From Desulfobacterales bacterium (lineage in GTDB: Bacteria > Desulfobacterota > Desulfobacteria > Desulfobacterales > JAHEIW01), in assembly GCA_037388985.1 (NCBI GenBank), contig JARRJQ010000013.1:2300-38678 (forward strand): a DNA stretch of 36,379 nucleotides, read 5' to 3'. Position 1 is the stretch's first letter; the number at the start of each line of letters is the position of its first letter. The notes below the pieces were generated by a model, which was not told the origin of the DNA, searched no databases, and was given only the letters and a program-made list of their open reading frames with translations. Of the stretch, positions 4,981 to 35,903 are shown piece after piece. The translations under genes were made by a program, and so were the position numbers.

Positions 4981-5216
4981 TGGCAACTGGTTTCTCGCTT
5001 CTTGCCGCTCGCAACTCGATTCTAGCCCAAAATAGGTTTCGGGTGTCAGGTTTCAGGTCAATAGATAAGCGCTGAGTGCTGAGGACTGAGGACTGAGCAA
5101 AAAATTATTCCTTATGTCCCACCGACCTCAGTCCTCAGCACTCAGTCCTCAGTCCTAAATTTGCAGACACCTGAAGCCTGACATGCAACCGGTAGCCAGA
5201 GGCCAGTTACAGACTT
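4981..5216. repeat. Nested composite inverted repeat made of three heptamer word types, filling the whole convergent spacer
   Basis: Outer tracts are TGGCAAC/TGGTTTC/TCGCTTC... (4981-5025) against 5187-5216. Middle arms are GGTGTCAGGTTTCAGGT (5034-5059) against GACACCTGAAGCCTGAC (5166-5186). Inner arms are GCTGAGTGCTGAGGACTGAGGACTGAG (5071-5097) against CTCAGTCCTCAGCACTCAGTCCTCAGTCC (5127-5155). Confidence 0.75.
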
Positions 5217-6191
5217 TTACTCGGGTGCGGGATAAATCGCCTTTTTGGTCGCAAGGTGTTTGGGCCAGATAACTTCCAGTTTTCCCTCGATCCATTGCAC
5301 CAGAAGAGTCGGATGTTTGTTCTGCCGCGTTTTTTGGTCGTAGCTGATGAACTTAACCGGGCCGAACACTGTCATTAAGTCGGTTGCCGCCAGGGCATCG
5401 CGAACTCCCCTGGGGCTCAGCGCCGATGCGCATTTGAGCGCAGCGGCAATCACCTGCATACCGGCATAGGCCTCAGCCCCATGGTATCCGGGCGGTGTAT
5501 TGGTTGCGGTCCTAAATTTTTTGAAGTACTCTTTTGCTCCGGGGTAAGGCACCGAAGCTGCCCAAGGGGTAAGGGAGACAACCTGTTCAGAGGCTTTTCC
5601 GGCATTTTTTACAAATTCATTTTGGGTGAATCCGGTCGCAGAGCCGATAAACAGCTTTGGATTCAGCTTCAGTTCCCTGGCTTGACGGATCAGACCTGCT
5701 GCATCCCGCATATCATGGGCAACCACGTAAAGCAGATCGGGCCTTTGGATTTTGATCTTAGCCAGCAAGGGTTTGAAGTCGTTGCTGCCCCGCTCATAAC
5801 GTTCCCTGGCCACCAGCCGTAGGTTTAGCACTCGGGCTGTTTTGAAAAAATTCCTCGCTTCGGATGCCCCTGTTAGCGTGTTAACATACACGAGTGCAGC
5901 TGATTTGATGTCAGTTGCAACCTCTTTGACAAAAGATGCGAATGTCTCAAATTGCTCTCCTACCGGCTGATTCAATCTGAAAATGAATTCCCAACCCTGC
6001 TCGGTGATTTTATCCGCTGACGCGCTGTTGACCAGAAATGGTATTTGATTTTGCTGGGCGATGGCGATCGTCGCCCAGGTTACCGAACTTAAAAAACCAC
6101 CGCCGATTACCAGGGGGTGGTTGCGGCGGATTAATTTTTCAATCGCAGCACGCCCTGCATCAGGATTGCCCTGCGTATCTGCAATGATCAA
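5217..6191 (-). CDS. Leu/Ile/Val-type ABC substrate-binding protein, apparently 5'-truncated (no signal peptide; possible pseudogene)
   Basis: 324 aa, starting at a TTG inside the conserved AAGGINGKKIEL region. An in-frame TGA lies at 6246-6248. Complete family members carry roughly 50-70 more N-terminal residues. Confidence 0.65.
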   Translation of the reverse strand: MIIADTQGNPDAGRAAIEKLIRRNHPLVIGGGFLSSVTWATIAIAQQNQIPFLVNSASADKITEQGWEFIFRLNQPVGEQFETFASFVKEVATDIKSAALVYVNTLTGASEARNFFKTARVLNLRLVARERYERGSNDFKPLLAKIKIQRPDLLYVVAHDMRDAAGLIRQARELKLNPKLFIGSATGFTQNEFVKNAGKASEQVVSLTPWAASVPYPGAKEYFKKFRTATNTPPGYHGAEAYAGMQVIAAALKCASALSPRGVRDALAATDLMTVFGPVKFISYDQKTRQNKHPTLLVQWIEGKLEVIWPKHLATKKAIYPAPE

Positions 6192-6319
6192 TTCTATTTT
6201 CTTGCCATTTATGCCGCCGGCCGCAGAGGATAATTGAAAGGTTTTTCATTGGTCCCGACGATAAAAATAGGAATTGGTTTAAACGCACGTGGATTTTTTG
6301 GAGTTTTTAAACTGGATTG

Positions 6320-7027
6320 TCAAATTCCCAGATAGGCCTCTCTGATATCAGACGATCCCTTTATTTCTTCAGGAGTCCCTTTGGCCTTGATCACACCTTC
6401 GTGCATGACATAGACAAAGTCAGCAGCATTCAGTGACGCATCGGCATTTTGTTCCACCAAAAGAATCGTTAAGCCGATTTCGGCTTTCATTTTTTGAATG
6501 GTTTCAAAAACCTCGCCCACCAATTTTGGGGCCAGTCCCTGGCTGGGCTCATCCAGCATCATGAGTTCGGGCTTGGTCATCAACCCCCGTGCAATAGTGA
6601 CCATTTGTTGTTCGCCGCCACTCAAAGACCCGGCCATTTGTTTGCTTCTTTCCTTCAAACGGGGAAATAAGGAATAAACCAGCTCAAGCGATTCTTTCTT
6701 GTGCGCCAGCGCTTTTTTTAAATAGGCACCCATGGAAAGATTTTCGTAAACCGTCATTCCGGGAAACAAATGCTTGCCTTCCGGCACCAGGGCAATGCCC
6801 ATCCCCACCTTTTTATGGGTAGGAACGGTAGTAACATCTTGTTCATTATAAGTCACGCTTCCTCCCCAGGGTTCGACGGAGCCGAAAATCGTGGCGAGCA
6901 TCGTGCTCTTTCCCACGCCATTAGGCCCCAACAGGGATGTTATTGTTCCTTTTTCGACTTCGATGCTCGGTTTCCACAACACCTGCATGGAGCCATAGCC
7001 GGATTCCAATTCATTAATACTTAACAT
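6320..7027 (-). CDS. livF: branched-chain amino acid ABC transporter ATP-binding protein LivF
   Basis: Walker A GPNGVGKST, signature LSGGEQQ, Walker B MMLDEP, and a C-terminal AYLG. Confidence 0.85.
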   Translation of the reverse strand: MLSINELESGYGSMQVLWKPSIEVEKGTITSLLGPNGVGKSTMLATIFGSVEPWGGSVTYNEQDVTTVPTHKKVGMGIALVPEGKHLFPGMTVYENLSMGAYLKKALAHKKESLELVYSLFPRLKERSKQMAGSLSGGEQQMVTIARGLMTKPELMMLDEPSQGLAPKLVGEVFETIQKMKAEIGLTILLVEQNADASLNAADFVYVMHEGVIKAKGTPEEIKGSSDIREAYLGI

Positions 7028-7029
7028 GG

Positions 7030-7605
7030 TTATCCCTCCGGAGGATGACCCAGGTAAACCTCCACAACCTTTGGATCTTGCAGAGCTTCTTGTGTAGGAG
7101 CATCAACGATTTTGGCCCCCTGGTCCAAGACGATAACTTTTTCGGCCATGCCGACAACTGCGCGCATGATATGCTCAACCATGGCAACAATGGCAATTTT
7201 GTCGCGATGCTCATCCAGACCGACACGCTTGGCAATGATATCTGCAAATTCCAAGGCTTGATCAACATTGACTTTACTGCCAATTGTGCCGAACATCGCC
7301 CCAACCGCAATATTTTCTCTAACGCTGGCGGAAGCGAATGGTCTTGGAATCTGAAAGGTTCGACCGATCCCCAGTGGCGCTCTTTTATAAGGCGGCAAGG
7401 TTGTGATATTCTGCCCTTCAAAGATAATCTGGCCCTCTTCGGGAAAGAAGACACCGCTGATGCAATTGAACAGGGTTGTTTTGCCGCTTCCGTTCGGGCC
7501 CACGATTCCGACGAACTGACCGCGTTTTATCTGCAGACTCACCCGATCCACCGCAATCAGACCGCCAAACCGCTTGGTTACTTTTTCGAGCTCTAATAAC
7601 GCCAT
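7030..7605 (-). CDS. livG: LivG-like ABC ATP-binding protein with an internal in-frame deletion (signature and Walker B absent)
   Basis: Walker A GPNGSGKTT, Q-loop RTFQ, H-loop VEH and a C-terminal VYLG are present. The protein is only 191 aa and jumps from RVGLDEHRDK straight to IAIVAMVEH. Confidence 0.75.
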   Translation of the reverse strand: MALLELEKVTKRFGGLIAVDRVSLQIKRGQFVGIVGPNGSGKTTLFNCISGVFFPEEGQIIFEGQNITTLPPYKRAPLGIGRTFQIPRPFASASVRENIAVGAMFGTIGSKVNVDQALEFADIIAKRVGLDEHRDKIAIVAMVEHIMRAVVGMAEKVIVLDQGAKIVDAPTQEALQDPKVVEVYLGHPPEG

Positions 7606-7613
7606 AACCCCAC

Positions 7614-8615
7614 CTAAATGATAAATTTTCCAAGAGCGGTATATTTTAACCTGCTTTTCAACATTCCGACCACACCTTCCGGAAACATCACGATAATCAG
7701 AATGATAATCGGCGCAAAAATCAGCAGCTGAAATCCTGGAAGGAAAATGGCCAGATAGTATTTGGAGATGCCATAAATCAATCCGCCGAAGACCGGTCCC
7801 AGCAATGTGCCGGCGCCGCCTAAAAGCACAATAATAATCGCCTCAACGGTATAATGGATTTCAAAGACTTCCGGGGGAAATACATAGGGAGTTTTGAGCG
7901 CCCAGGACGAGGCGCCGATCAAACCGGCGAAACCGGCGCTGGTGATAAAAGCAAAGATTTTGAATTTCGTCACATGAATGCCCATGACCTTGGCGGCATC
8001 TTCATCTTCGCGCAAGGCTGTCAACGCGTAACCGATTTTGCTGCGCATGTAAAACAGCGTAACGAAGGCCGCCAGCGCCGCAATGATCAGCACCATCACA
8101 TCCGCCCAGAAGGTTGACAGCGCGCTGGCGGCTTCCCTGCCTAAAATTTTATTGAGCTGGGCGGTAAATATGATGCCTTCAGAGCCATTCCAGATCCGGG
8201 CACCTTCGATTAGAAAACGAAACCCTTCATTGACGCCGATGGTGGCAATCGCAAAATAAGCGCCCCTGAGCCTCAGCGCCACAGCGCCTACCGCAATGGA
8301 CAGAAGACCGGACATCAGCAAGGCCAGCAAAAATCCGATGGCAATAATGACGAGTCCCGATTCCAGCCTATTGGCCAGACGCGAGATGGACAAGGCCATG
8401 CCGTAAGTGCCGACACCCATAAATGCCACATAACCGAAATCCACATATCCGGTCATGCCCAGGAAAATATTGAACGCCTGTCCCAGCGCACAATAAAAGA
8501 GAAGCATTGCGACAAGCTGCCATACGCCGGAAACATTATTGCCGATCAAAAATAAAATCAAATAAGCCGCATAGACGGGGATCAGCGGGTAGTATTTTTC
8601 AATTTTATTTTTCAT
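7614..8615 (-). CDS. livM: branched-chain amino acid ABC transporter permease LivM
   Basis: 333-aa polytopic membrane protein at the LivM position of the operon. It overlaps livH by 4 nt. Confidence 0.85.
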   Translation of the reverse strand: MKNKIEKYYPLIPVYAAYLILFLIGNNVSGVWQLVAMLLFYCALGQAFNIFLGMTGYVDFGYVAFMGVGTYGMALSISRLANRLESGLVIIAIGFLLALLMSGLLSIAVGAVALRLRGAYFAIATIGVNEGFRFLIEGARIWNGSEGIIFTAQLNKILGREAASALSTFWADVMVLIIAALAAFVTLFYMRSKIGYALTALREDEDAAKVMGIHVTKFKIFAFITSAGFAGLIGASSWALKTPYVFPPEVFEIHYTVEAIIIVLLGGAGTLLGPVFGGLIYGISKYYLAIFLPGFQLLIFAPIIILIIVMFPEGVVGMLKSRLKYTALGKFII

Positions 8616-9499
8616 TTTTTGCTTAAAATTCCGGTGGGTTTAATTAGAAGAATGACTAACAGCATCAAAAACGAGAAAAACCGGGTCAAGGCAAACGGCT
8701 CCACTCCCGGAATCAAGGCAAACAGGGTATAGGTACCATTTTCTAAAAGTCCAAATACCAGTCCGCCGAAGAAAGCCCCGTAAGGTGAAGACAGACCCCC
8801 TAAAACTGCAATCACAAAAGCTTTCAAGGTGTATCCGCCTCCCATGTAGGGATTGATACCCACAGGGATAAACATCGTAACCAGGACTCCGCTGGCCGTC
8901 GTCAGCCCGATTCCCAGTGCGAAGCTCAAGGCATACGCGCCGCCCACATTCACGCCGCAAACCCTGGCCCCTTGGCTGTCTTCCACCACACTGCGCATGG
9001 CAGCTCCTGCCCGGGTTTTGTTGAACCACAGATAAAGAAGCACGGCAATGCAAACGCTGCCGATAGCGGCATACAGTTTTGACATCGGCAAAACGGTTAT
9101 CCCCAGGTTCAGTTTGCCGACGACCCAGTTATACCCGCGGAACTCGGATCCGAAGATGAGCTTAACCAATTCCTCGAGCAAAACCCCGATCGCGAAGGTG
9201 GCCAGCAGGGTGGCGAGCTCGGGCGCTTTGAGCAACCGTTTGATAGCGGTGTAATAAAAAATGAGACCCAGGCCTATGCCGATAACAAAAGCAACCGGAA
9301 TCGCTAGTATAGGATTTAACCCCAACGCATTAAACAGCATAAGCGCCACAAAGGCACCTACCATGATAAAAGCGCCGTGGCCTACATTGACCACCTTCAG
9401 AACACCAAAAATAAGGCTCAAACCCATGGTGGCCATGCCGTACACGGTTCCCAGCACAAGGCCTTGGATCAGATTGCCCATCAGCTGTTCGAAAATCAT
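8612..9499 (-). CDS. livH: branched-chain amino acid ABC transporter permease LivH
   Basis: 295-aa polytopic membrane protein. The N-terminus (QLMGNLIQGLVLGTVYGMATMGLSLIFG) is typical of LivH. Confidence 0.85.
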   Translation of the reverse strand: MIFEQLMGNLIQGLVLGTVYGMATMGLSLIFGVLKVVNVGHGAFIMVGAFVALMLFNALGLNPILAIPVAFVIGIGLGLIFYYTAIKRLLKAPELATLLATFAIGVLLEELVKLIFGSEFRGYNWVVGKLNLGITVLPMSKLYAAIGSVCIAVLLYLWFNKTRAGAAMRSVVEDSQGARVCGVNVGGAYALSFALGIGLTTASGVLVTMFIPVGINPYMGGGYTLKAFVIAVLGGLSSPYGAFFGGLVFGLLENGTYTLFALIPGVEPFALTRFFSFLMLLVILLIKPTGILSKK

Positions 9500-9600
9500 T
9501 CTAGAATATCCTTATGGTCATTCAGAATATTCAATGCCTTTTCTGAATGGAGATATCGCCATCACCGGCGTAATTTTTTGGGTGATGGCGATTATATCCT

Positions 9601-10872: not shown

Positions 10873-10968
10873 ACCTTTTGCCTCCTTTAAATTAAGGGTT
10901 CGATTCTTCTGTCTATGACCATAATTCATGTTCAACTATTTATCCGGCAATGATAAATGAACCGCCAT

Positions 10969-11044
10969 CGGTTTCTATACAATTGAAATTCAAAGAGTGT
11001 CAACCTATAAAAATCTGAAAAACCTGTCCGGTTTTTATACGATT
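10969..11044 (-). promoter_or_regulatory. Two copies of a 16-nt direct repeat upstream of the liv-type operon (candidate operator or UTR element)
   Basis: CGGTTTCTATACAATT (10969-10984) and CGGTTTTTATACGATT (11029-11044) match at 14 of 16 positions, 60 bp apart. They lie about 100-170 nt upstream of the 10872 start. Confidence 0.25.
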
Positions 11045-12340: not shown

Positions 12341-12587
12341 GCTGTTTGAATCGGCGAGCCGATTAGCGCTCCGCGCTTGAGGAGCACTTCGTTCGAGGAT
12401 CAGCCCTTCGGGCGTCTAGGAGCGCCCTGGCGGGCTTTAGGCAATAACCGGAGCCGACCCAGCTGCTATGGTTAATGATCCTTCATACTTCAACCCGTTT
12501 CATCAAATCCCGCAGAAAGCGGGATGCTCTTCAAGTGAAACGCTCCTCAAGCGCAGCGCTCCTCAAATTCCGCCCGAAGTGGGATGG
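12341..12587. repeat. Structured repeat E12, sharing modules with the E1/E13/E16/E31 family
   Basis: Inverted repeat GCGCTCCGCGCTTGAGGAGC (about 12365-12385) against GCTCCTCAAGCGCAGCGCTCC (about 12541-12562). Hairpin ATCCCGCAGAAAGCGGGAT at 12507-12525. The reverse complement contains CTAGACGCCCGAAGGGCTG, similar to CTAATGTCCGAGGGCTG in E31. Confidence 0.45.
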
Positions 12588-13289: not shown

Positions 13290-13389
13290 AACCCTTCCTA
13301 AAATTAAATGATTTAAATGCCCGCTTGACGGCATGCCTGCAGTTCAGGAAGAGGTGCGGGGCGATGGTTGATCGGCGGCTTAATCGTTA

Positions 13390-13634
13390 GAAGTGGTTTC
13401 AAAACCCCATCTAGCGTCCGATAGCTGCGTTGCAGCCCTCTTCAAATTAGGTGCTCATCCCGCCTCAGGCGGGACTGCGCTTTTTCACTTGTCCCGCCAT
13501 AGCCCCGTAGCTCGCCAAAGGGCGACGGCGGATCGGCCTGCGCTTGCTGAGCACCTTAAATTAGCAAGATTAGATGCGAAGTCCCGCTATCTAGCGGGGC
13601 TCTCGAACGCGATCTGAGACTTTGAAACCACTTC
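13390..13634. mobile_element. MITE-like element E13 (245 bp), E13/E31 subfamily
   Basis: Terminal inverted repeat GAAGTGGTTTCAAA (13390-13403) against TTTGAAACCACTTC (13621-13634). The left end GGTTTCAAAACCCCATCTAGCGTCCGATAGCTGCGTTGCAGCC is about 80% identical to the E31 left end. Internal hairpins lie at 13458-13474 and 13583-13598. Confidence 0.55.
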
Positions 13635-14496
13635 CGGCTAATTCTTCGTATAGTTTATATGGAATAAACAGCGCTCCTTTTCCTGTTCCCATTTCTATTT
13701 TTGGCGTTATTGAACCGTGAAAATCAGTGCCTCCGGTGATTAAAAGATTATATTTATCGGCGAGTTGCCTATAGCGCAGGATTTGTTCGGGCGAATGTTC
13801 CGGGTAATATACTTCTATTCCGCGCATTCCAATTTTTATTAAATTTTGGATGAGCTCCTCCAACTGAAAATCGTCAGTAATGTTTAAAAGAGCCGGATGG
13901 GCCAGTACCGGGACACCTCCAGCGCCCCTGATCATTTTAATGGTTTCTTCACATCCGATGCGATCTTTGTCAATATAGGCGGGCTTGCCGGCTCCTAAAA
14001 ATTTGTCAAATGCTTCATCCATCGATTCCACAAATCCCTTTTTGATCATTACCTGAGCGATATGCGGTCTGCCCAGCTGGCCATGGTCGACGGTTTGATT
14101 GACATCTTCCATCGAGATTTCAAGCCCCAATTCATTCAGCCGTTTTATAATTTTGGGATTGCGATTTTTCCTGGCTTCCCGGAGTCTGTTCAAGGCCTGA
14201 TTTAAGGCTTGATTATCAAGGCGGATACAATATCCCAAAATATGGAAACTGCCAGAACCGGGAAAAAACGGGGGGTGTGCTGCACTGATTTCGACGCCGG
14301 TTAAAAACTTTAAAGAAGAGGGTATGCCAGTTCGGAGAGCCTCTTTAGATCCATATATGGAGTCATGATCTGTTATAGCGATCGCGGCCAGATTAAGCCT
14401 TTGAGCATGGTCGATTATTTCAGCGGGTGTGAAAGAGCCATCTGAGGCAGTTGAATGTATATGAAGATCAATCCCCAGACGATTTTTATAATCCAA
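13591..14496 (-). CDS. PHP-domain phosphoesterase (TrpH/YciV-like)
   Basis: N-terminal DLHIHSTASDGS...AITDHD. TTG start. The last 14 codons and the stop lie inside repeat E13. Confidence 0.8.
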   Translation of the reverse strand: MDYKNRLGIDLHIHSTASDGSFTPAEIIDHAQRLNLAAIAITDHDSIYGSKEALRTGIPSSLKFLTGVEISAAHPPFFPGSGSFHILGYCIRLDNQALNQALNRLREARKNRNPKIIKRLNELGLEISMEDVNQTVDHGQLGRPHIAQVMIKKGFVESMDEAFDKFLGAGKPAYIDKDRIGCEETIKMIRGAGGVPVLAHPALLNITDDFQLEELIQNLIKIGMRGIEVYYPEHSPEQILRYRQLADKYNLLITGGTDFHGSITPKIEMGTGKGALFIPYKLYEELAGSGFKVSDRVREPR

Positions 14497-16606: not shown

Positions 16607-16624
16607 AATCTATCCTCCATGTGA

Positions 16625-17012
16625 ATTGTCCGTCGTTCGTTGTCTGTTGTCCGTTGCAAGGACTTACTCAGAAAAACAAAAGCCGATCGAAAAGATCGAT
16701 TTTCCTCGCGCTGGATCGAAATCTCACATTTAGATAGTGAATATGTGGGAGACGATTCAAAGCGCTATCGAAACGAATCCGACTAGAAGCCATCTCAAAA
16801 ATGTCTTTTGGCCTCCCGCCTTTTTCGGCGGGATTGGTGCCTCGTTTCAAATCCTCGACAACCAATAGGTTGCCTGCGGTTTGAAACTCGGCCCCGCCGC
16901 GATCTTGAACCAAAATCCTATTTTTGAGATGGCTTCTAATACATGTTTCTGATCCAAGCACCCGTTAGTGTTTAGGAAATTGCTACTGACCACTAACCAC
17001 GGACAACGAACA
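16625..17012. repeat. Heptamer-arm inverted repeat (TTGTCCG/TCGTTCG words) whose loop carries MITE E16
   Basis: Left arm TTGTCCGTCGTTCGTTGTCTGTTGTCCGTTGC (16625-16656). Right arm AACCACGGACAACGAACA (16995-17012). The core GTTCGTTGTC is perfectly complementary between the arms. Confidence 0.6.
16786..16936. mobile_element. MITE-like element E16 (151 bp) with a perfect 17-bp terminal inverted repeat and TA flanks
   Basis: GAAGCCATCTCAAAAAT (16786-16802) against ATTTTTGAGATGGCTTC (16920-16936). TA at 16784-16785 and 16937-16938. Hairpin TCCCGCCTTTTTCGGCGGGA at 16814-16833. Confidence 0.6.
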
Positions 17013-17016
17013 TTCT

Positions 17017-18282: not shown

Positions 18283-18360
18283 AGCTTGATTTGTTCCAAT
18301 AATGGCTGCTCGAGAGGTTTTCTTAAGCAACAAACTTTTTGGCCGCTTTTAGCATAGCAC

Positions 18361-18493
18361 AAATTCGAAATTCGAATATCGAAGCACGAAACAAATTCGA
18401 ATATCAAATGATCAAAATTTTAAAATGTTTAAAACATTCGGATTTAAGATTTTGAAAATTGTTTCGAATTTCGAGTTTCGGATTTAGGATTTT
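18361..18493. repeat. Heptamer-arm inverted repeat (AAATTCG words)
   Basis: AAATTCGAAATTCGAATATCGAAGCACGAAACAAATTCG (from 18361) against TTGTTTCGAATTTCGAGTTTCGGATTT (18459-18485). The centre holds the palindrome AATGTTTAAAACATT. Confidence 0.6.
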
Positions 18494-18547
18494 TACACAG
18501 GCAAAGTTCAAGCGCGCTAATTGTTAGGATGTACCGTTCTTATGATC

Positions 18548-19369: not shown

Positions 19370-19384
19370 TAATACTCCAGTTAG

Positions 19385-19485
19385 GGTTTGCCGCTTTCCG
19401 GTTTAGCCGGTTGCGCCGGTTTAAATTGAGGAGGAACTTGATTATATTTTTTTACCCGGCAAACGGGCTCAACGGGCAACGGGCC
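19385..19485. repeat. Weak heptamer-type tracts flanking the ccsA ribosome-binding region
   Basis: GGTTTGCCGCTTTCCGGTTTAGCCGGTTGCGCCGG against CCCGGCAAACGGGCTCAACGGGCAACGGGCC. Only about 8 bp (GTTTGCCG/CGGCAAAC) are clearly complementary. Confidence 0.3.
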
Positions 19486-20153
19486 TAATCTGTTTCAGCT
19501 GACAATAATTCTTCAACCCTATATCCCTCTCCCAATATTTTATAAAGAAGTAAATTTAGCTCCTTTCTTTGACCGCTGCGCAATAGCTCAATAAGGTCGC
19601 TGTCTATCAATTGATTAAATAAGGCTTTATGCGCCTCCGGTTCATGGGCTCTACTCAGCAACTTTTTGCGGATGGCTCCCATTAAAAGCAGAAAATCCGC
19701 ATATTCTTCACCGAATTGGGCCTCTATTTTTCGGCGTAACCGTTTTGCCAGGGCCGGACTTTGACCGGAAGTCGAAATCGTAATGACCAAATCTCCGCGT
19801 TGTACAATAGAAGGCAGGACAAAGTTGCAAGCTTCCGGACGATCGGCAATATTGCACAGGATGCCGATTTGCCCGGCATCCTCGCTGATTTGATGATTCA
19901 GCTTTTCATCATCTGTGGCTCCGATGACCAGAAACATGTCTTTCAAATCGGCGCTTCGGTAAATCCGTTCTCTTAGGGTAATGGACCCCTCTTCATCCAG
20001 TTTTTTTAGCTGCTGGGTCGGAGCAGGACTGACGACTGTAACTCTGGCGCCGCACGTTAAAAGAGTATTTACCTTGCGGGTGCCCACCGCCCCTCCCCCC
20101 ACGACCAGACAGTTGCGGCTTTTAATATCCAAATGGATGGGGTAGTACTTCAT
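19485..20153 (-). CDS. precorrin-2 dehydrogenase / sirohydrochlorin ferrochelatase (siroheme synthase N-terminal type)
   Basis: Rossmann motif LVVGGGAVGTRK and 222 aa, the typical SirC/Met8 size. It lies in a heme gene context. Confidence 0.8.
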   Translation of the reverse strand: MKYYPIHLDIKSRNCLVVGGGAVGTRKVNTLLTCGARVTVVSPAPTQQLKKLDEEGSITLRERIYRSADLKDMFLVIGATDDEKLNHQISEDAGQIGILCNIADRPEACNFVLPSIVQRGDLVITISTSGQSPALAKRLRRKIEAQFGEEYADFLLLMGAIRKKLLSRAHEPEAHKALFNQLIDSDLIELLRSGQRKELNLLLYKILGEGYRVEELLSAETD

Positions 20154-21109: not shown

Positions 21110-21274
21110 AAATAAGTGACCTAAAGTGACAAGTGATCTAAAGTGACTAAAGTTAAGGAATCGGGTCATTTTTATAAAAAAGATGGAGCGTTAAGCGGCG
21201 CAAGCTCCTGCGCTGCTTGAGCGACTCTTGAACTTTAGTCACTTCAAACTTTAGTTCACTTTAGTCACTTATTT
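21110..21274. repeat. Inverted repeat with TAAAGTGAC-type word arms; homolog of the 35786-35903 element
   Basis: AAATAAGTGACCTAAAGTGACAAGTGATCTAAAGTGACTAAAGTT (21110-21154) against AACTTTAGTCACTTCAAACTTTAGTTCACTTTAGTCACTTATTT (21231-21274). The loop contains AAAAGATGGAGC (21177-21188). Confidence 0.7.
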
Positions 21275-22340: not shown

Positions 22341-22371
22341 AAAAAACAAAAACCCGGCTCTTAAGGCCGGG
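22341..22371 (-). terminator. Rho-independent terminator of clpB
   Basis: Stem CCCGGC/GCCGGG (22353-22358 with 22366-22371) with a 7-nt loop. On the minus strand it is followed by UUUUUGUUUUUU. It lies 23 nt past the clpB stop. Confidence 0.6.
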
Positions 22372-22393
22372 CATGTTTCATTTAAATCGACAT

Positions 22394-25144: not shown

Positions 25145-25183
25145 AAGCCGGTTGGAGTCAGACGTAAATCCCGATTTATCGGA
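25145..25183 (+). repeat. Bipartite 39-40-nt repeat, copy A
   Basis: AAGCCGGTTGGAG-N7-TAAATCCCGATTTATCGG. It matches the reverse complement of 27149-27188 over blocks of 13 and 18 nt. Confidence 0.6.
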
Positions 25184-25285
25184 GGCCTAAAAAATAAAAA
25201 TTTAGCCCCGAAAACAGAAAAATGAAAGAGTATAAATTTCATGCTTTCCAGATTTCGGGTTTTTGGGTTGAAATGATCCAGCAGC

Positions 25286-25825: not shown

Positions 25826-25941
25826 GGGTTTCAGTGTTCAGGTGTCAGAAAACAGAAGACAACGAACGTTGGACAGAACCTGATAACACCATAAGTCTTA
25901 AGGCTCGAACTGCTGACACCCGAAACCTGACACCTGAAACC
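25826..25941. repeat. Heptamer-arm hairpin (GTGTCAG/TGTTCAG words), copy 1, just 3' of the zinc-ribbon gene
   Basis: GGGTTTCAGTGTTCAGGTGTCAG (25826-25848) against CTGACACCCGAAACCTGACACCTGAAACC (25913-25941). The loop contains GACAACGAACG words like the 16625 element. Confidence 0.7.
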
Positions 25942-25945
25942 AAAA

Positions 25946-26263
25946 TTATACTTTTTGCCCGCAATGTGGGCAGTATTTGAAATCTTTATCCAGCCTTTTT
26001 CCACAATATCTGCATGTCCCGGCTCCTTCCTGTTGCCGCCGGATAAAATCCGAGTCAAACTCATGGAAGCTCTTCTCGCATCGCTCGCACATAATAAACG
26101 GTTGTCCTTTTTTAACTCTTAAGATTGGAATGAAAAAAAGGCTGAGGTAATGGTCGATGCGCTTATAGTAGGCCTGATTCAATCCGCAAACCGGGCATCT
26201 GCGGGGATTTTGATCCAAAATCTTTATTTTGGGTGCAACACCGGCGATGAAGATCATTTTCAA
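25946..26263 (-). CDS. zinc-ribbon domain protein (105 aa)
   Basis: Paired CxxC motifs (CPVCG...CERCE; CRYCG...CPHCG) with a hydrophobic segment between them. TTG start at 26263, or ATG at 26257. Confidence 0.6.
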   Translation of the reverse strand: MKMIFIAGVAPKIKILDQNPRRCPVCGLNQAYYKRIDHYLSLFFIPILRVKKGQPFIMCERCEKSFHEFDSDFIRRQQEGAGTCRYCGKRLDKDFKYCPHCGQKV

Positions 26264-26276
26264 AAGTTCATGCTTT

Positions 26277-26408
26277 AGGTTTCAGGTGTCAGTGTTCAGG
26301 TGTCAGCGCTGCCGGGTTGGAGGGTTTAAGGTTCAGCATTGAGAGGTCTGCCCTTGAATATAATGCATTGAGGAAACCTGACACCCGAAACCTGACACCT
26401 GAAACCTG
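26277..26408. repeat. Heptamer-arm hairpin (GTGTCAG/TGTTCAG words), copy 2, just 5' of the zinc-ribbon gene
   Basis: AGGTTTCAGGTGTCAGTGTTCAGGTGTCAG (26277-26306) against GAAACCTGACACCCGAAACCTGACACCTGAAACCTG (26373-26408). The 29-nt right arm is identical to 25913-25941. Confidence 0.75.
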
Positions 26409-26427
26409 CTTATTGAGCTAAGGCGGC

Positions 26428-26976: not shown

Positions 26977-27047
26977 AAGGGGCCCTCCATCTTTTCGCTT
27001 TAGAATTTTAATTGAAATTTCTTGGCACTTTTTATAAAAACTTTTTT

Positions 27048-27130
27048 CACCACGAAAACACGAAATTTAAAAAAGCACGAAATTTATATTATTATTTTTC
27101 GTGTTTTTATCTTTTCGTGCTTTCGTGATT
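27048..27130. repeat. Word-arm inverted repeat (CACGAAA words)
   Basis: CACCACGAAAACACGAAATTTAAAAAAGCACGAAATTT (27048-27085) against TTTTTCGTGTTTTTATCTTTTCGTGCTTTCGTGATT (27095-27130). Confidence 0.6.
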
Positions 27131-27148
27131 AATTAATCTTTTTTAGTT

Positions 27149-27267: not shown

Positions 27268-27504
27268 TTGTTTTTTGCGCTGTTTGGTAAAATCGGCATT
27301 ACGACAATCGTAACCGATAAATATTCGGGCCGATCCAGAGGCTTTGGTTTTGTCGAAATGGCCGATCAAAATGAGGCCCGCAAGGCAATTGCAGAACTTG
27401 ACGGAAAAGAGATCCAGGGCCGCAAGCTTAGGTTTAGCGAGGCTTTGGCCAGAAAAGATAAAGGCGGCGCTGGCAACGATCGTTCCTCGCGCTCTAAGAG
27501 ATAG
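27268..27504 (+). CDS. RRM-type RNA-binding protein with a degenerate N-terminus and no ATG (possible pseudogene)
   Basis: RNP-1 RGFGFVEM and a glycine/arginine-rich tail are present. The frame is open upstream to at least 27181 and contains no ATG. The TTG at 27268 would remove beta1/RNP-2. Confidence 0.6.
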   Translation: MFFALFGKIGITTIVTDKYSGRSRGFGFVEMADQNEARKAIAELDGKEIQGRKLRFSEALARKDKGGAGNDRSSRSKR

Positions 27505-29274: not shown

Positions 29275-29292
29275 AATTCTCCTATTTGAGTT

Positions 29293-29354: not shown

Positions 29355-29555
29355 TCAAATTCGCTTAACGTTGACTGCCTGTTTTCCTCTCTGAGTCTCC
29401 TTTACTTCGAATGAAACGCGGTCATCGGTTTTCAGGGTAAAAAAACCATGATCCTCGATACCGGTTCGGTGCACGAAGATATCGCCTTCTTCATCCGACT
29501 CGATAAAGCCATAGCCTTTCTTTTCATTGTACCACTTGATGCGGCCTTCAGCCAT
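29355..29555 (-). CDS. cold-shock protein (CspA family)
   Basis: GRIKWYNEKKGYGFI (RNP1-like) and DIFVH (RNP2-like). ATG at 29555 preceded by AAGGAGG. Confidence 0.9.
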   Translation of the reverse strand: MAEGRIKWYNEKKGYGFIESDEEGDIFVHRTGIEDHGFFTLKTDDRVSFEVKETQRGKQAVNVKRI

Positions 29556-29910: not shown

Positions 29911-30015
29911 GATTCTGTGTAAGATGTTGATTTGATCTTGGAAATGATTATATGATATCTTTTCATGAATGGTCATAAAACCACTGCCTGAATTTACCAA
30001 TCAAAGGGGTTTGAA

Positions 30016-30351
30016 ATGGAGATAGATCAAAAAGAGGAGAACGGGGTCGTATTTCTGGCTTTCAAAGGTCGTTTGGACGGGTCATCTGCGCCTGAAGCTG
30101 AGCAAATTATCGATAATATCTTAAAGGACCAAAAAAATCGTCTCCTTTTCGACTTTGAATTTCTTGAATATCTTAGCAGTGCCGGCCTGCGGGTGGTCTT
30201 AGGCGCTGCAAAAGAAATGAAGCGCCGAGACGGAAAATTTGTTCTTTGCGCCCTGAATGCCTATGTTAAAGAAGTTTTTGACGTCAGCGGATTCGGTGCC
30301 ATTATTCCGATTGCCGACTCTGTCGAAGCGGGTTTAAGACAAATTGCCTAG
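30016..30351 (+). CDS. STAS-domain anti-sigma-factor antagonist (SpoIIAA/RsbV-like)
   Basis: 111 aa. FLEYLSSAGLRVVL carries the conserved phosphorylatable serine context. Confidence 0.85.
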   Translation: MEIDQKEENGVVFLAFKGRLDGSSAPEAEQIIDNILKDQKNRLLFDFEFLEYLSSAGLRVVLGAAKEMKRRDGKFVLCALNAYVKEVFDVSGFGAIIPIADSVEAGLRQIA

Positions 30352-30408
30352 CCGTTGCAAACCACTTCCGTTTTAGCAATTTCCCCAAATCTATCCAGGA
30401 GATAGTGG

Positions 30409-31560
30409 GTGTCCGATCGTCCAAAAGAAATTGAATCGTTGCTGCTGGTTGACGACAATCCAACCAATCTCCAGGTCCTTTATCAAACCCTTGAAACAAC
30501 CGGTTGCAAGCTGTTAGTGGCCAAAAACGGTGAAACCGCGTTGTCCATTGCCCAAAAAGCATCACCGGATCTGATTTTGCTGGATATCATGATGCCCGGA
30601 ATAGATGGATTTGAGGTCTGTCGCCGCCTAAAAGGCGATCCGGCCACAGCAGCCATTCCGGTCATTTTTCTTTCAGCGCTTACCGACACCAAGGACAAGG
30701 TCCAGGGACTTCAACTGGGGGCGGTTGATTACGTCTCCAAACCGTTTCAACCGGATGAAGTCATTGCGCGGGTAAACACCCACCTGACCATTCATCGACT
30801 CAAGCGCGAAGTCGAAAAGAAAAAAGATGCACTTGAAAATGAACTTAAAATCGTCTCCGATGTCCAGCGCCGACTGCTGCCCAAGAAGGTGCCGGAAATT
30901 CCGGGTTTTAAACTCGCGGTTCATTATGAAACCAGCCTTTATGCCGGTGGCGACTATTACGATATCGTCAAAATGCAAGACAATCAATGGGGCTTTCTGG
31001 TGGCCGATGCCGAGGGACACAGCGCGCCAGCGGCAGTCATGATGGCCATGACCTGCGCGCTTTTTCGTTCTTATCCTCAACCGCCCACGGAACCCGGCGA
31101 ACTTCTGTATTTTCTGAATGATCACCTGTGCAAGGTTGCCGATCCCAGCTTTGTCACCGCCTTATACGTGGTCTACGATGCCGACCATCACACCGTAAAA
31201 ATTGCACGGGCTGGCCATCCGCCGCCGATGATTTGCCGCTCTGACGAGCAAAAAGCAATCGAGGTTGATTGCAGCGGTGTGTTTCCCATGGGAGTCGATC
31301 CCTACGATCGAGTGCCACCGGTAACCGAAGTCGAATTAAAGCCTGGAGATCGCATACTGATGTATACGGACGGGGTTACCGAAAGGTTTAACACGGATGC
31401 GGAAACATATGGAGAAGAACGTCTGCTGAAGCAGCTTGAAGTCAACCTGGAGGGCGGCCCTGAAGAATTGCTGGCTGCCATTATGCAAGATGTGGACGCT
31501 TTTGCCAATGGTCGCCCGGCGGATGATGATCAGGCCTTGTTGTTAGCCATCGTACGGTAA
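30409..31560 (+). CDS. response regulator with PP2C-type (SpoIIE/RsbU-like) phosphatase output
   Basis: N-terminal REC domain (LLVDDNPTNL...LLDIMMPGIDG...SKP) and a C-terminal PP2C domain (GGDYYD...VADAEGHS...YTDGVTE...DDQALL). GTG start after AGGAG. Confidence 0.85.
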   Translation: MSDRPKEIESLLLVDDNPTNLQVLYQTLETTGCKLLVAKNGETALSIAQKASPDLILLDIMMPGIDGFEVCRRLKGDPATAAIPVIFLSALTDTKDKVQGLQLGAVDYVSKPFQPDEVIARVNTHLTIHRLKREVEKKKDALENELKIVSDVQRRLLPKKVPEIPGFKLAVHYETSLYAGGDYYDIVKMQDNQWGFLVADAEGHSAPAAVMMAMTCALFRSYPQPPTEPGELLYFLNDHLCKVADPSFVTALYVVYDADHHTVKIARAGHPPPMICRSDEQKAIEVDCSGVFPMGVDPYDRVPPVTEVELKPGDRILMYTDGVTERFNTDAETYGEERLLKQLEVNLEGGPEELLAAIMQDVDAFANGRPADDDQALLLAIVR

Positions 31561-31703
31561 AATTGGTTTTAAAACCCCATCTAATGTCCGAGGGCTGTGT
31601 TACAAGCCGGCTAAAAATGCTCACGTACTATCGTGTACGCTCCGCTTTTTAGCCGACTTGCGCCTTGCCCTCAGCCATAATCTGAGGTCTTAAAACCAAT
31701 TTT
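31559..31703. mobile_element. MITE-like element E31 (145 bp)
   Basis: 14-bp perfect terminal inverted repeat AAAATTGGTTTTAA (31559-31572) / TTAAAACCAATTTT (31690-31703). The left end is homologous to E13. The 74-nt core (31593-31666) is 81% identical, ungapped, to the reverse complement of 1207-1280. Confidence 0.6.
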
Positions 31704-31817
31704 GAAATTTTTATCTAACGAAATTTCGCTGAACCAGAGAACTTCTTACTTCTAGATTCCTTGTTCGACCTGCCCGCCATGACGAGCCGTCTGGTTATTC
31801 AATTTTCAAAGAGGCGG

Positions 31818-34800
31818 TTAAGCCTTTTTGGCAAGCTTTTCCAACTCACCTACCAATTTGGAAATTCCTTCAAAGTCAAAGTCCTCGGCCAATCGAACAA
31901 ATTGATCACCGATGGGGATGAAGGCATCGGATTTGGACTTCAGCTCTGCGACAATGGACTTTACCTGGGTGACATCACCCATTTCAGCCGGCTCTTTGAT
32001 TCGGTCGACAGCCTCCTCAGCCAAGTTGGGCGGCAGGTCGACCATTTCGTTTGAAGACGGCCGTTGAGGCTTTTCAGCGGGCACCGGACCCAAGGTTTGG
32101 ACCGCTTCCAGAGCGTGATTGATGGACTTTTCCAGTTTCGCAAATTTTGGGTCCCACTGCTTTTGAGATACTGCCTTTGCTTGATCTCCTTTAACCAGTT
32201 TCTCCAATTCCACCGCCGAGGCCTGAAGCTCGGTGGCCGCCAGATTTCCGGCCAACCCCTTCAGGTTGTGAATCAGGCTGTGGGCCTGCTTTAAATCCCC
32301 GGCATCCAGTGCCTGTCGGATTTCAGCGGCCACCTGGGTGTATTTGCCACCGAAATCCATCAGCAGCTTTCGGTAAAGCTGTTGATTGCCCCGCAGGCGC
32401 TTGAGTCCTTCGGCCAGGTCAAATCCAGGCAGGGAATCCGGCAACACTGTTTTTGGCGGCATCGTCTTGATTGCCGCCGCTTTTGCAGCCGATGGCACCG
32501 CCGGTCGGACCGGCACATGTTTGCCTGTCGGCTGTATCCATTTTTGTAAAGTCGCAAACAGCTGATCCGGATCTATAGGCTTGGTGACATGGCCGTTCAT
32601 GCCGGCGGTCATGCTTCTTTCTTCATCTCCGGCCATGGCATGGGCGGTCATGGCTATAATTGGAAGTGCTGAGGACTGAGGACTGAGGGCTGAGTTTGCT
32701 TTTTGGATTTCTTTTTCCCACTCGCGTATTTTGCGAGTTGCGGTGTAGCCGTCCATAACCGGCATCTGTATATCCATAAGCACGGCGTCATAATGATTGT
32801 TCTGCACAGCAACAACGGCCTCCTGGCCGTTGTTGGCCAGGGTGACCCTGAGGCCGGCACCTTCCAATATTTCCCTGGCCACCTGCTGGTTGATCTCGTT
32901 GTCCTCTGCCAGCAATACCTGCGCCCCCCGGATATTTCGTAATGTATCGGTCTCCTGCGCCTTCATCCGGGCTCTGTGTGAAGTTTCCAGCACCTCTTTG
33001 CCGAAAGCCTGCATGATGGCGTAAAAAAGAACCGAAGGGCTCACCGGTTTGAGCAGGAATCCATCCAGTCCGAGGTGTTCGGCCTTGCGCATCACGTCTT
33101 CCCGACCGTAAGCCGTCACCATGATAATGGCGGGGATATACTTCAGGCCGGAATGCTGCTTGATGCGCCGGGCGGCCTCGATGCCGTCCATGCCCGGCAT
33201 CTTCCAGTCCATAATCACCAGCTCAATCGGTCCCTCCTCAGGAGCATTCTCCAACTCAACCAGCCCTTCCGGACCGGATGCCGCCAGGGCAACGTTAAAT
33301 GAAAAAGACTCCAGCATATCCTGAAAGATTTCCCGTGAGGTGAAATTGTCGTCCACCACCAGCACTTTCATGCCCCGCATTTCCGGTGAAGTAGCAAAGT
33401 GCCTCTTGGCTCTCTGCTTTCCCGGACCGAAGGTGGCCGTAAAACTGAAGGTGCTGCCCCGACCGAGTTTGCTTTCCACCCAGATTTCACCGTTCATCAT
33501 CTCCACAAGGCGCTTGCTGATAGCCAGGCCCAGTCCGGTTCCGCCGTATTTGCGCGTGGTGGAGGTATCGGCTTGACTGAAGGATTGAAACATCCTGGCC
33601 GCCTGTTCCTGTGTCAGCCCGATACCCGTATCGCTGACCGCAAACTTCAACGTGATCCGCTCTTCACTCTGTTTTAACAATTCGGTGGAGACCACAATTT
33701 CACCCTGTTCGGTAAATTTGACCGCATTGTTGGCCAGATTGATCAAAATCTGCCCCAGTCGCAACGGATCACCCACCAGAAAGTGGGGAACATCCTGCGC
33801 CGTAGCGAAAAGAACTTCCAGATCCTTTTTTTCCTGGGCCTTTACGGTGACCAGATTAGCCAGATTATCCAGCACTTCATCAAGGTTGAAGTCGATCGAT
33901 TCCATGTCGAGTTTGCCGGCCTCGATCTTGGAAAAATCCAAAATGTCGTTGATGATGCCCAGAAGCGAATTGGCTGATGACTGGATCTTGGTCAGATAAT
34001 CCCGCTGTTTTGAGGTCAACTCGGTCTTTAAGGCCAGATGGGCCATGCCGATGATCGCATTCATCGGTGTGCGGATTTCGTGGCTCATATTGGCCAAAAA
34101 ATCACCCTTGGCCCTGTTGGCCTCCTCGGCGGCCTGTTTGGCCTCGATTAATTCAACTTCCATCTGCTTGCGTCCGGTGATATCGCTGAACACCACCACA
34201 CTTCCCGTGAGGGTGCCGTTTCTCGCAATCGGAACACTGCTGTATTCCACAGGAAAAAAGGTGCCGTCTTTACGCCACAGAATTTCATCATCGATCTTGG
34301 CGCTCGTACCTTTGGTCAGCGTTTGATGCATCGGACAATCTGCGAGGGGATAGGGAGTTCCGTCAGCATGCGTGTGATGCACCAGGGCATGAATCTGCTG
34401 GCCGATCACTTCTTCGGCTTTAAAGCCCAGCATGGCCAATCCGGCCGGATTGATGAAAGAAACCAATCCGTCTCGCCCAACGCCAAAGATACCTTCGCCG
34501 GCTGACTCTAAAAGAAGGCGGCTGCGCTCTTCAGCCTGCTCGAGGCGCTTCTGATTTTCTTTCAATTCGGCAGTGCGCTCGGCGACCAACTCTTCCAGGT
34601 GATCGCGATGTTTCTTTAGTTCGGATTCTGATTGTTTCAGCGCAGACTCGGCCTGATCAATGGAAGCAATCATTTCGTTGAAAGACTGAGCCAGGCTGCC
34701 GACTTCATCTTTGGATTTGATTTCAATTTGATAGTCGAGATCACCGGTTTGGGCGATCATCCGGGTACCGTCATTCAGCTTTTTTATGGGTTTGATGACA

Positions 34801-35765
34801 AACTTTTGCAAACCGGCAACGGTCAAAACACTCAGCAGCGCCAGCGAAACGAAAAGGGCCAGAATAATCCGGTTTACAGATTTTTTGACCTCACTGTGTA
34901 TTTCTTCAACTGGAATAATCATTCCGAGTTTCCAGCCCAGCTCGGGAGACGTATAAAAGAAAAGATAGCGTTTTTCCGACTTTTTGGTGACGGTTAAAAA
35001 GCCCTGGCTCTCTTTAAAAAATGCTTCCAAATCATCTTTGAATAAAGCATCGATGGTCAGTCCCCGCAAAGCGCGATCCGAGCTGGCCAGAAAAGTTCCT
35101 TCCCCGTCCAGTAAAACCATATACCCCTTATGGCCTACTTTGACGTTTTCAATATAATCGGTAAGATTGGTAATGGTGACATCAATGCCCACCACGCCGT
35201 AAATCTCACCCTTTTCGTCCAGCAGCGCCTTGACCGTTCCGATGTTGACATCCGGGGAGGTTACTGACGCATATGGAGGGGTTCGCATGACTTTTCCCGG
35301 ATTCTCCTTTGCCAGCGTGTACCAGGGCCGTGTTCGCGGATCATATTTTGTAGGCCGTGTTCTTCTATGCGAGCGCACAAAACTGCCGTTTTCCCGGCCC
35401 ATGTAAACCGAGTTCACATATTTATGAGCTTGTCGATAGCGGTTGAAGATGTCGATGATCTTCTGTTCCAGTGGGCCGATGTCATATTGGAAGGTATCAG
35501 GGTCTGCTTCTAAAAAATTGGTAAATTTCTGATCGTTTCTGGATCTGACCGTTTCATTGGAAACCAGTTCATTCAGATCTTCTTCGACCTGATAAAAATA
35601 GCTATTCAGGGCAAAATCAATGTGGGCCAACTCGTTCTGGATGCCCTTATATATCGTCGAAAACCGTTCCTTTTTCAGCCTTGATGAAACGAAGCTGCCA
35701 ATTGAAAGCAGGATTAAAAGGCCAATCGCCACATAAAGCAGCAATATTTTAGACCTGAGCTTCAT
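31818..35765 (-). CDS. hybrid sensor histidine kinase (TM-Cache-TM-HAMP-PAS-HisKA-HATPase-REC-REC-Hpt)
   Basis: 1315 aa. H-box [10 protein letters not shown]-box DTGIGL...GTGLGL, two receiver domains (DWKMPGMDG; [10 protein letters not shown]) and a C-terminal Hpt domain (HNLKG). Confidence 0.9.
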
Positions 35766-35785
35766 GGCATTTTCTCCAAATGCGC

Positions 35786-35903
35786 CAAAATTTTAAAATG
35801 ATCTAAAATGCCTAAATTTGAGGAATTCTATCATATGATAAAAGATGGAGCACAGCGACACCATAACTTTAGGCATTTTAGATCATTTTAGGCACTTTAG
35901 ACA
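35786..35903. repeat. Word-arm inverted repeat; homolog of the 21110-21274 element
   Basis: Perfect 22-bp stem AAAATGATCTAAAATGCCTAAA (35794-35815) / TTTAGGCATTTTAGATCATTTT (35867-35888). The loop contains AAAAGATGGAGC (35839-35850). Confidence 0.75.

Follow-up and report, generated by a model that had tools for sequence, protein, structure and literature searches.

Reports of tandem repeats with a unit of seven nucleotides go back to 1990 for cyanobacteria and came later for Xanthomonas and the Beggiatoaceae, and to our knowledge no explanation of their origin or function has been given so far. Here we report the analysis of a stretch of 36,379 nucleotides from a Desulfobacterales bacterium (GenBank assembly GCA_037388985.1, contig JARRJQ010000013.1, positions 2,300 to 38,678; hereafter the window), in which tracts of short tandem words face their own reverse complements across intergenic spacers and form what we call word hairpins. 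The kind of structure is known from cyanobacteria and Xanthomonas; the lineage, the diversity of the words and a conserved core are new.

Elhai and co-workers reportedly described, in 2008, small dispersed repeats (SDR) embedded in the heptamer tracts of Nostoc. Other small repeats with inverted arms include bacterial MITEs (miniature transposable elements bounded by inverted repeats) such as Correia/NEMIS, ERIC and Nezha, and the Drosophila Foldback (FB) transposons, whose long inverted arms consist of short tandem sub-repeats. In filamentous cyanobacteria, short tandemly repeated repetitive (STRR) heptamer tracts form hairpins in spacers such as hupS-hupL (PMC2670836). The corresponding microsatellites have the unit GGGAATC in Xanthomonas campestris and X. 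axonopodis and GGGGAYT in Nostoc (Rehm et al. 2015, PMC4692102), with 70-75 convergent inverted pairs per Xanthomonas genome that are able to form stem-loops or cruciforms (PMC4692102). The TAACTGA repeats of marine Beggiatoaceae are direct, with 169 direct sets as against one indirect set (MacGregor 2015, PMC4679880). The repetitive extragenic palindromic (REP) sequences, BIMEs and REPINs, with their RAYT transposases, are established mobile hairpins, and GTAG-type REPs have been reported in D. alkenivorans, itself a Desulfobacterales species (PMC3116915, PMC3733652).

The window was analysed together with collected loci and metagenome contigs, here labelled L001, L045 and so on, which amount to ~1.85 Mb in total. 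An initial annotation, made from the window alone, had pointed to at least nine spacers with facing arms of tandem words of mostly 7 nt, and the period-7 signal is borne out. In 6.7 kb of intergenic DNA the base identity at lag 7 was 0.293, against 0.259 ± 0.005 in dinucleotide-preserving shuffles (z=+6.3), and lag 14 was also raised (z=+3.9); the coding DNA of the window gave a period-3 signal only, with no lag-7 excess. Tandem Repeats Finder returned period-7 arrays at 5034-5156, 16626-16656, 18361-18485, 19470-19484, 25913-25941 and 26277-26408, one more inside a gene at 32669-32694, and arrays of period 8-10 at 21114-21270, 27092-27127 and 35866-35906. An inverted-repeat search placed a reverse-complement partner of each tract at a distance of 13-340 nt, with the highest arm complementarity at 35794/35865 (96% over 26 nt) and between the innermost arms at 5072/5126 (100% over 20 nt). 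The facing tracts are given below with fold z-scores, which were taken against shuffles, from single-strand DNA folds for individual hairpins and from RNA folds for whole spacers. Two of the hairpins enclose the conserved core, which we call loop A.

4981-5216: composite hairpin with nested arms, taking up a whole convergent spacer and of the same sequence in L087 and L088; weak outer arms of TGGCAAC type, middle arms of GTTTCAG/GTGTCAG words (5034-5058 and 5163-5186), inner arms of CTGAGGA words (5072-5097 and 5127-5152); DNA fold of 5068-5156, z=-6.3; whole-spacer RNA fold of 4979-5216, z=-8.2
16619-17013: hairpin of CAACGGA/CAACGAA words with arms 16619-16647 and 16985-17013, starting 4 nt past the hemA stop and ending just ahead of the fabD ribosome-binding site; loop of 337 nt containing a non-periodic inverted-repeat element (16784-16938); whole-spacer RNA fold of 16607-17016, z=-8.3
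18361-18492: hairpin of AAATTCG/CGAATAT words in the ccsA-hemA spacer, arms 18361-18405 and 18448-18492; DNA fold of 18358-18495, z=-3.3
19385-19485: degenerate GCAACGG/CCGGTTT tracts in the cysG-ccsA spacer, with period 7 at 19470-84; DNA fold of 19380-19488, z=-0.85, not significant
21114-21270: hairpin of 9-nt TAAAGTGAC words, arms 21114-21153 and 21232-21270, enclosing a loop-A core (21154-21231) of the variant whose GAGCG...GAGCGA part carries an inserted GC-rich hairpin; DNA fold of 21120-21265, z=-5.5
25827-25941: hairpin of GTGTCAG/GTTTCAG words, arms 25827-25848 and 25913-25941; RNA fold of the whole spacer containing 25826-25941, z=-2.4, marginal
26277-26407: second hairpin of GTGTCAG/GTTTCAG words, arms 26277-26306 and 26378-26407; DNA fold of 26274-26410, z=-4.9
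27051-27127: hairpin of 8-nt CACGAAA(A) words with a 13-nt loop, in the divergent spacer between a PK_C-domain gene and an RRM gene; DNA fold of 27046-27132, z=-5.7
35794-35906: hairpin of 9-nt AAAATGCCT/TAAAGTGCC words, arms 35794-35819 and 35865-35906, enclosing a loop-A core (loop 35817-35864); DNA fold of 35786-35906, z=-6.7

Significant hairpin folding was found at seven of the nine loci named in the initial annotation, six by DNA fold and 16607-17016 by the RNA fold of its spacer. The remaining two fall short: 19385-19485, which had rightly been singled out as the weakest case, is a weak and probably decayed instance, and words resembling its tracts occur in the orthologous spacer of L045; the value for 25826-25941 is marginal and is a figure for the whole spacer, not for the hairpin alone. 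The further claim that such tracts occupy most intergenic spacers was too wide, as word hairpins lie in ~9-10 of the ~21 window spacers of at least 100 nt, and four others hold non-periodic elements. Convergent and tandem junctions had been named as the sites; 4981-5216 is indeed convergent, whereas the spacer at 27048-27130 is divergent because the RRM gene (27268-27504) lies on the + strand.

Among 433 short-period arrays in the window and 80 related loci, 53 had a reverse-complement partner within 500 nt, while the same arrays had a reversed partner in one case, a partner that was complement only in four and a direct partner in seven. These counts (53 versus 1-7), the lag-7 autocorrelation and the fold z-scores rule out a chance origin. 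An assembly artefact, raised as a possible refutation in the initial annotation, is ruled out as well, since independently assembled contigs of at least five other samples match the hairpin-bearing sequence at 100% identity; L001-L006, L087 and L088, from different samples, have identical hairpins.

By its gene content and HemA matches (best 76-79% identity, to Desulfobacterales metagenome-assembled genomes), the host of the window is assigned to an uncultured member of the Desulfobacterales, a relative of sulfate reducers. The gene block pkc-znr-spoU-clpB-dhh-mbl-cysG-ccsA-hemA-fabD-dksA-php-rnc is syntenic in dozens of Desulfobacterales species, and in most relatives its spacers are mostly 10-100 nt long and array-free; the long spacers of relatives are those that carry arrays, at a junction that differs from species to species. 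Comparison of these orthologous junctions shows the word hairpins to be insertions relative to what would have been short ancestral spacers. The ccsA stop and the hemA start are ~5 nt apart in L059 and L073, and the same junction holds a different insertion in each of L069 (a CACGAAA hairpin), L051, L044 and L050. Block gain or loss between close relatives and word turnover at junctions, which the initial annotation had proposed to look for, were both found. A 252-nt hairpin of AAATTCG/CGAATAT words, with a 7-bp direct repeat (GGTTAGC) at its borders, distinguishes L050 from L044 (95% identical), which does not have it, and a 318-nt inverted-repeat element bordered by a 4-bp direct repeat (GTGA) is present in L014 and not in L015. 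The third polymorphic site, with 5-bp border repeats, lies in the window:

25155-25266: 112-bp segment with a weak CCGAAAA-type hairpin and the direct repeat GGTTG at its borders, missing from assembly L003 and hence a within-population presence/absence polymorphism

Some hairpins are retained. In L045, whose HemA is 79% identical, the CAACGGA/CAACGAA words are found again in the hemA-fabD spacer and extend likewise from stop codon to ribosome-binding site, with a hairpin loop of 66 nt as against 337 nt in the window, and CGAATAT words upstream of hemA are common to L007 and the window.

Period-7 arrays are enriched in some Desulfobacterales relatives and absent in others; L007, L012, L018, L045, L059, L069 and L073 are tract-rich, and L009, L030, L035 and L052 tract-poor. 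Different genomes share 17 canonical heptamers (1000 randomisations gave 6.9 on average and 14 at most), and complete hairpins, too, are found more than once. Copies of the CACGAAA(A) hairpin with an unchanged four-unit layout and a loop of 11-15 nt lie in the window and, at other junctions, in L066, L068 and L069; the GTGTCAG/GTTTCAG arm CTGACACCYGAMACC was found at 26 loci; and TAAAGTGCC words with the conserved core occur twice in the window, in L012 and L016 and in many metagenome loci. Judged by these comparisons, the words are shown to form a limited vocabulary common to several genomes, in which whole hairpins recur as families, and this speaks against the suggested generator that would make a new word at each site (17 shared words versus ~7 expected). 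The expectation of a wider process is supported at the level of the lineage, the same architecture being present in some of the Desulfobacterales genomes as well as in many contigs from sediment metagenomes; these are dispersed, apparently mobile families that are common in marine-sediment bacteria.

The right arms of the two GTGTCAG-word hairpins (25913-25941 and 26378-26406) are 100% identical and their loops are unrelated. A 105-aa zinc-ribbon gene (25946-26263) lies in a cassette-like position between the inverted tracts (25913-26306, 88% complementary over 34 nt). As this gene is syntenic in the relatives L014, L019 and L068, the tracts around it probably represent two neighbouring hairpins and not a mobile gene. 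The CACGAAA hairpin stands in its divergent spacer upstream of the gene for an RRM-type RNA-binding protein (27268-27504, + strand), and a cold-shock-domain gene (29355-29555, - strand) lies close to the RRM gene; RRM proteins are uncommon in bacteria outside the cyanobacteria, another lineage with heptamer repeats.

The loops at 21154-21231 and 35817-35864 share a motif with the hairpin loops of L007, L012, L016, L017, L059 and L073. This loop-A core is ~45 nt long and asymmetric (AAGGWATTCTGYCNATTT, an A/T-rich part and GAGCGAAGCGA), and the relatives that share it have different arm words (CGAATAT, GAACGTC, AACATCC, TTGATTG). A scan of public metagenome contigs for AAGGWATTCTGYCNATTT yielded at least 120 stretches, and most of the matches listed have one layout, namely tandem words, AAGGWATTCTGYCNATTT, an A/T-rich stretch, GAGCGAAGCGA, 7-8 nt and the reverse-complement words. 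Arm statistics were obtained from 50 non-redundant loop-A elements, in which the best period was 7 for 40 of the left and 41 of the right arms and arm complementarity had a median score of 27.5, versus 14 for arms paired across different elements. In the same 50 elements core variants co-segregate with the arm word, so that arms and core are inherited as one unit within a subfamily; the core variant of 21114-21270 recurs in L181. The number of units differs from copy to copy and between the two arms of one copy, as in L163 (at least 8 units versus ~4).

Within the core there is a small hairpin, TCTGYC..GRCAGA, with one TA/CG covarying pair, and also GCGAAGC, which is a very stable DNA mini-hairpin. 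One loop-A contig, L127, belongs to the Desulfobacteraceae/Deltaproteobacteria by protein similarity. Searches of Rfam 15 at gathering thresholds gave no match in the window and none in 14 loop-A loci (118 kb), and a loop-A element had no match in a plasmid database. Readings of the core as a promoter, an IHF site or a small open reading frame (ORF), made by eye only, were inconsistent between copies or in orientation and were dropped. A separate repeat unit, consisting of GTAGTTTCAYAYGAG, a GC-rich stem and GTCTGATCRAAAAAGAAACT, often flanks loop-A elements in metagenome contigs and is often followed by GAGGTTTCAG..CTGACACCYGAMACCTGAAACC and a T-run. It was found at L105 166-225, at L193 ~1655-1720 (- strand) and several times in L106, L129 and L167; it begins with GTAG as in REP, its GTTTC and GAAAC ends pair, and it has no Rfam match.

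Our preferred reading, held with moderate confidence, is that the word tracts are several families of small non-autonomous elements, akin to foldback elements, MITEs and REPINs, with microsatellite-like arms, which have been inserted in spacers. Each element is a long imperfect palindrome with arms that are arrays of a 7-9 nt word and its reverse complement. The arms would change word and length quickly via replication slippage and would be kept complementary at the DNA level, either by copying of the element as a hairpin or by quasipalindrome correction, in which replication switches template inside the hairpin and one arm is made to match the other. Spread would make use of a trans-acting enzyme. 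Co-transcribed stems of 25-45 bp would form double-stranded RNA and could have consequences for the processing or the stability of mRNA; these would most likely be incidental and not the reason why the elements exist. Nesting of newer elements in the loops of older ones is shown by 4981-5216 and by 16619-17013 with the foreign element in its loop.

Arm complementarity looks like a property of DNA rather than of RNA, because G.T and A.C arm mismatches are equal (35 versus 28), the sense strand is the more stable one in only 5 of 17 cases, and the orientation of the core to neighbouring genes is not significant (11 versus 5, p=0.21, duplicate loci removed). An orientation bias seen at first (12 versus 3) disappeared with the removal of the duplicate loci, and the test for G.U wobble bias is confounded for the internal hairpin of the core, the search pattern having fixed one strand.

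Several observations weigh against mobile elements of this kind. Neither a transposase nor an autonomous partner was found in the ~1.85 Mb of collected loci, which does not prove their absence; no protein family recurs beside the elements in 120 loci, and no Y1_Tnp domain is present among the called genes of L001 or L087. A conserved centre with variable arms is the reverse of ordinary MITEs and REPINs, and the analogy may mislead. The border repeats of 7, 5 and 4 bp (in L050, in the window versus L003, and in L014, respectively) fit deletion between short repeats equally well, so that target-site duplication is not established. A minority of loop-A elements are chimeric, with non-complementary arms (for example GGATTTT on the left and TTCGTCA on the right), so that hairpin formation is not obligatory. 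The source genome was seen over ~44 kb in all, comprising the window and a 7.8-kb leftward extension, and this extra 7.8 kb has no word hairpins. The upkeep of same-word hairpins at orthologous sites across 79% HemA identity could moreover point to selection for a host function.

In an alternative reading the hairpins would be host-selected RNA elements in polycistronic transcripts, which protect the upstream mRNA from 3' exonucleases or uncouple cistrons through RNase III processing, the role that has been proposed for the STRR hairpins of cyanobacteria and for E. coli REP sequences. We regard this as fairly unlikely. In its favour, the hairpins begin a few nt past one stop codon and end shortly ahead of the ribosome-binding site that follows, within a conserved co-directional array, they are tolerated between essential genes, where transcription must run through them, some persist at orthologous junctions with unchanged words, as at hemA-fabD in the window and L045, and divergent, promoter-bearing spacers are the rarest loop-A context (3 of 75); the STRR hairpins of cyanobacteria have also been proposed to stabilise transcripts as intercistronic stem-loops (PMC2670836). 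However, G.U-compatible mismatches are not in excess on the sense strand, folding of the antisense strand is as good or better, both loop-A copies of the window are antisense to their neighbouring genes within an overall orientation that is not significant, the hairpin at 27051-27127 lies in a divergent spacer, and close relatives lack hairpins at the same junctions. A host role in mRNA stabilisation or RNase III processing is possible as an acquired effect. Growth in place without mobility, in which slippage expands a seed word and snap-back or template switching mirrors it as a neutral by-product of replication, would account for the variation in unit number, for the more perfect inner than outer arms of 4981-5216 and for word turnover at orthologous junctions; many bacteria have an excess of heptamer microsatellites, for which slippage of the polymerase with a heptamer preference is a possible cause, according to Mrazek et al. 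2007 as cited in PMC4679880. We think it very unlikely all the same, given that complex hairpins recur at non-orthologous sites of different genomes with their variant units in the same order and with the same non-repetitive core of 45 nt, that hairpins appear as single blocks of 250-320 nt between species 92-95% identical, and that the ancestral spacer can be ~5 nt long and then offers no seed to expand.

It is more doubtful still that the tracts are binding-site arrays for a protein of cold-shock-domain, RRM, CsrA or nucleoid type, with the 7-nt period as the footprint of one unit. The vocabulary is restricted and common to several genomes, tracts without a complementary partner exist (32664-32694 and the chimeric loop-A elements), GGA or AAGGA is present in many words and at the start of the core, RRM and cold-shock-domain genes lie in the window, and MacGregor proposed binding of S1, Csp or CsrA to the TAACTGA repeats (PMC4679880). 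Against this, at least a dozen unrelated words in one neighbourhood would require many binders, the words are degenerate within a tract, and a single-strand binder leaves the reverse-complement arrangement unexplained (53 versus 1-7 in controls). Termination, another function put forward initially, does not fit either: in a scan for a short G+C-rich stem, a 3-8 nt loop and a T-run no word hairpin qualifies as an intrinsic terminator, and the sole canonical terminator nearby (22352-22372) is separate from them. Known RNA families, tRNA and tmRNA gave no matches, CRISPR arrays do not fit in spacing or sequences, and integron attC sites were set aside, as the genes on either side are housekeeping genes in conserved synteny.

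A wider reading would place one enzymatic process behind the Desulfobacterales hairpins, the STRR/SDR sequences, the GGGAATC pairs and the TAACTGA repeats, which would act on DNA hairpins and add or copy sequence in 7-nt steps. The agent might be a nuclease or transposase that targets hairpins and has a 7-nt stagger, or a polymerase that adds repeats from a template, and the core would serve as its recognition module. We hold this to be distinctly unlikely; if true, these would be the first bacterial foldback transposons with self-renewing arms.

Two further features of the window were not in the initial annotation:

12368-12566: inverted pair of tracts with a 16-nt period (GCTCCTCAAGCGAAAC) in the rnc-radical SAM spacer, of the same architecture with a longer unit
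32664-32694: single CTGAGGA-word tract inside a hybrid histidine-kinase gene (ORF 31818-35765, - strand)

The coding tract is 87% identical to 5067-5097, flank included, and is in frame, encoding ..SALSPQSSA... It falls in a receiver-domain loop that has 4 aa (RFKE or HFKD) in most homologues, and in a few homologues this position holds low-complexity insertions of other kinds; no record exists of the exact protein encoded by the window gene. In the rnc-radical SAM spacer of L045, the closest relative (8357-8652), GCTGCTG tracts face a 114-nt, 16-unit GCCAGAC heptamer tract, which is the longest array among related loci.

A second, non-periodic family of inverted-repeat elements of 150-260 nt was seen at 1105-1320, 13385-13640, 16780-16940 and 31555-31710, and at 15574-15697 of L087, with shared ends such as TGGTTTYAAAACCCCATCTA..GTCCGA and 80% identity between 13385-13434 and 31555-31604. 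The copy at 1207-1331 has a 92% match ~3 kb outside the window, and that at 16780-16940 sits in the loop of a heptamer hairpin. Over 9.7 kb, L003 differs from the window by 12 substitutions, 11 of them clustered in 42 nt at 16840-16881, the tip of this element. Both alleles fold as hairpins with different pairings (-16.7 and -14.0 kcal/mol); an inversion, as in an invertible switch, was tested and rejected, and paralogous gene conversion, a template switch or an assembly chimera are possible sources. The spacer at 9500-9600 has two non-periodic hairpins, TTCAGAATA..TTCTGAATG and GATATCGCCATCACC..GGTGATGGCGAT (fold z=-5.8), unrelated to the word families. The window also lacks five segments, of 163, 152, ~153, 85 and 122 bp, that are present in assemblies of the same population (L001-L004, L087, L088). 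They map to 3856/3857, 6225/6226, ~7192-7203, 14821 and 29095/29096, all in or at coding sequences and none at hairpins, and their absence splits an 808-aa PBP1 gene in two and shortens four other genes, which encode an ABC ATPase, a substrate-binding protein, DksA and a product of 116 aa.

With these elements the Desulfobacterales, which are dominant in marine-sediment sulfate reduction, become the third major lineage with heptamer repeats, and they offer two new handles. A conserved non-repetitive core marks a whole superfamily, so that copies can be found and aligned although their arms differ, and clean insertion polymorphisms are available between close species in a conserved housekeeping operon; mobility, arm turnover and any effect on operon expression are therefore directly testable. 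The elements inflate spacers, break translational coupling (ccsA-hemA from ~5 nt to at least 250 nt) and can enter coding loops in frame, and they matter for the annotation, metagenome assembly and strain typing of such uncultured bacteria.

In the literature we found no description of heptamer repeats for the Desulfobacterales, nothing relevant on repeats of D. autotrophicum and no description of the core sequence, in line with the initial annotation, which knew of none in this gene context; inverted heptamer pairs as such are nevertheless known in Xanthomonas (PMC4692102). The likeness to STRR that it had drawn is apt, given the STRR hairpin tracts in spacers such as hupS-hupL (PMC2670836). 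Both systems have 7-nt tandem words in intergenic or intercistronic spacers, as seen here in the period-7 arrays and the lag-7 excess (z=+6.3), with several families per genome and facing complements that give hairpins; STRR/SDR and the present elements both have nested insertions and a small conserved module inside heptamer tracts. Unlike STRR, the host here belongs to the Desulfobacterota and not to the Cyanobacteria, the 45-nt core has no reported cyanobacterial counterpart, and most words differ: CCCCAGT, TTGGTCA and CAACAGT are absent from the window, and TTGGTCA, the STRR2 word, was met only in the relative L069.

The GGGAATC pairs of Xanthomonas resemble our elements in their strong intergenic bias, in their usual presence at the same junctions of sister species with variable length, in their rarity between divergent genes and in that no function has been found. 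They differ in that one G-rich, G-quadruplex-capable word dominates, whereas here there are many words that are not G-rich, and in that no core and no evidence of cross-genus families has been described. The TAACTGA repeats are likewise intergenic heptamer tandem repeats of sediment bacteria, occasionally in frame inside genes and with a patchy phylogenetic distribution suggesting transfer, but they use one word only, as direct repeats just upstream of start codons, with no hairpin architecture.

With REP sequences and REPINs the word hairpins share an extragenic, dispersed and non-coding nature, multiple copies, two inverted copies (doublets) that fold, as single-stranded DNA or as mRNA, into long hairpins, clusters of mosaic or nested make-up and several flavours per genome. 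REP arms are conserved and non-periodic around a variable spacer, whereas in word hairpins this is reversed; inspection of word-hairpin arm ends revealed no GTAG or CGTC tag, and the genes called in L001 and L087 include no RAYT gene. Compared with MITEs, target-site duplication is not established, no autonomous parent was found in the collected loci and the arms are not conserved superfamily-wide. The elements are nonetheless short, non-coding and multi-copy with terminal inverted repeats, and their dispersed copies combine presence/absence between close relatives with short border direct repeats and with insertion into operon spacers without disruption. FB transposons are eukaryotic and far larger, but their arms, like those described here, are built of tandem sub-repeats whose number varies between copies.

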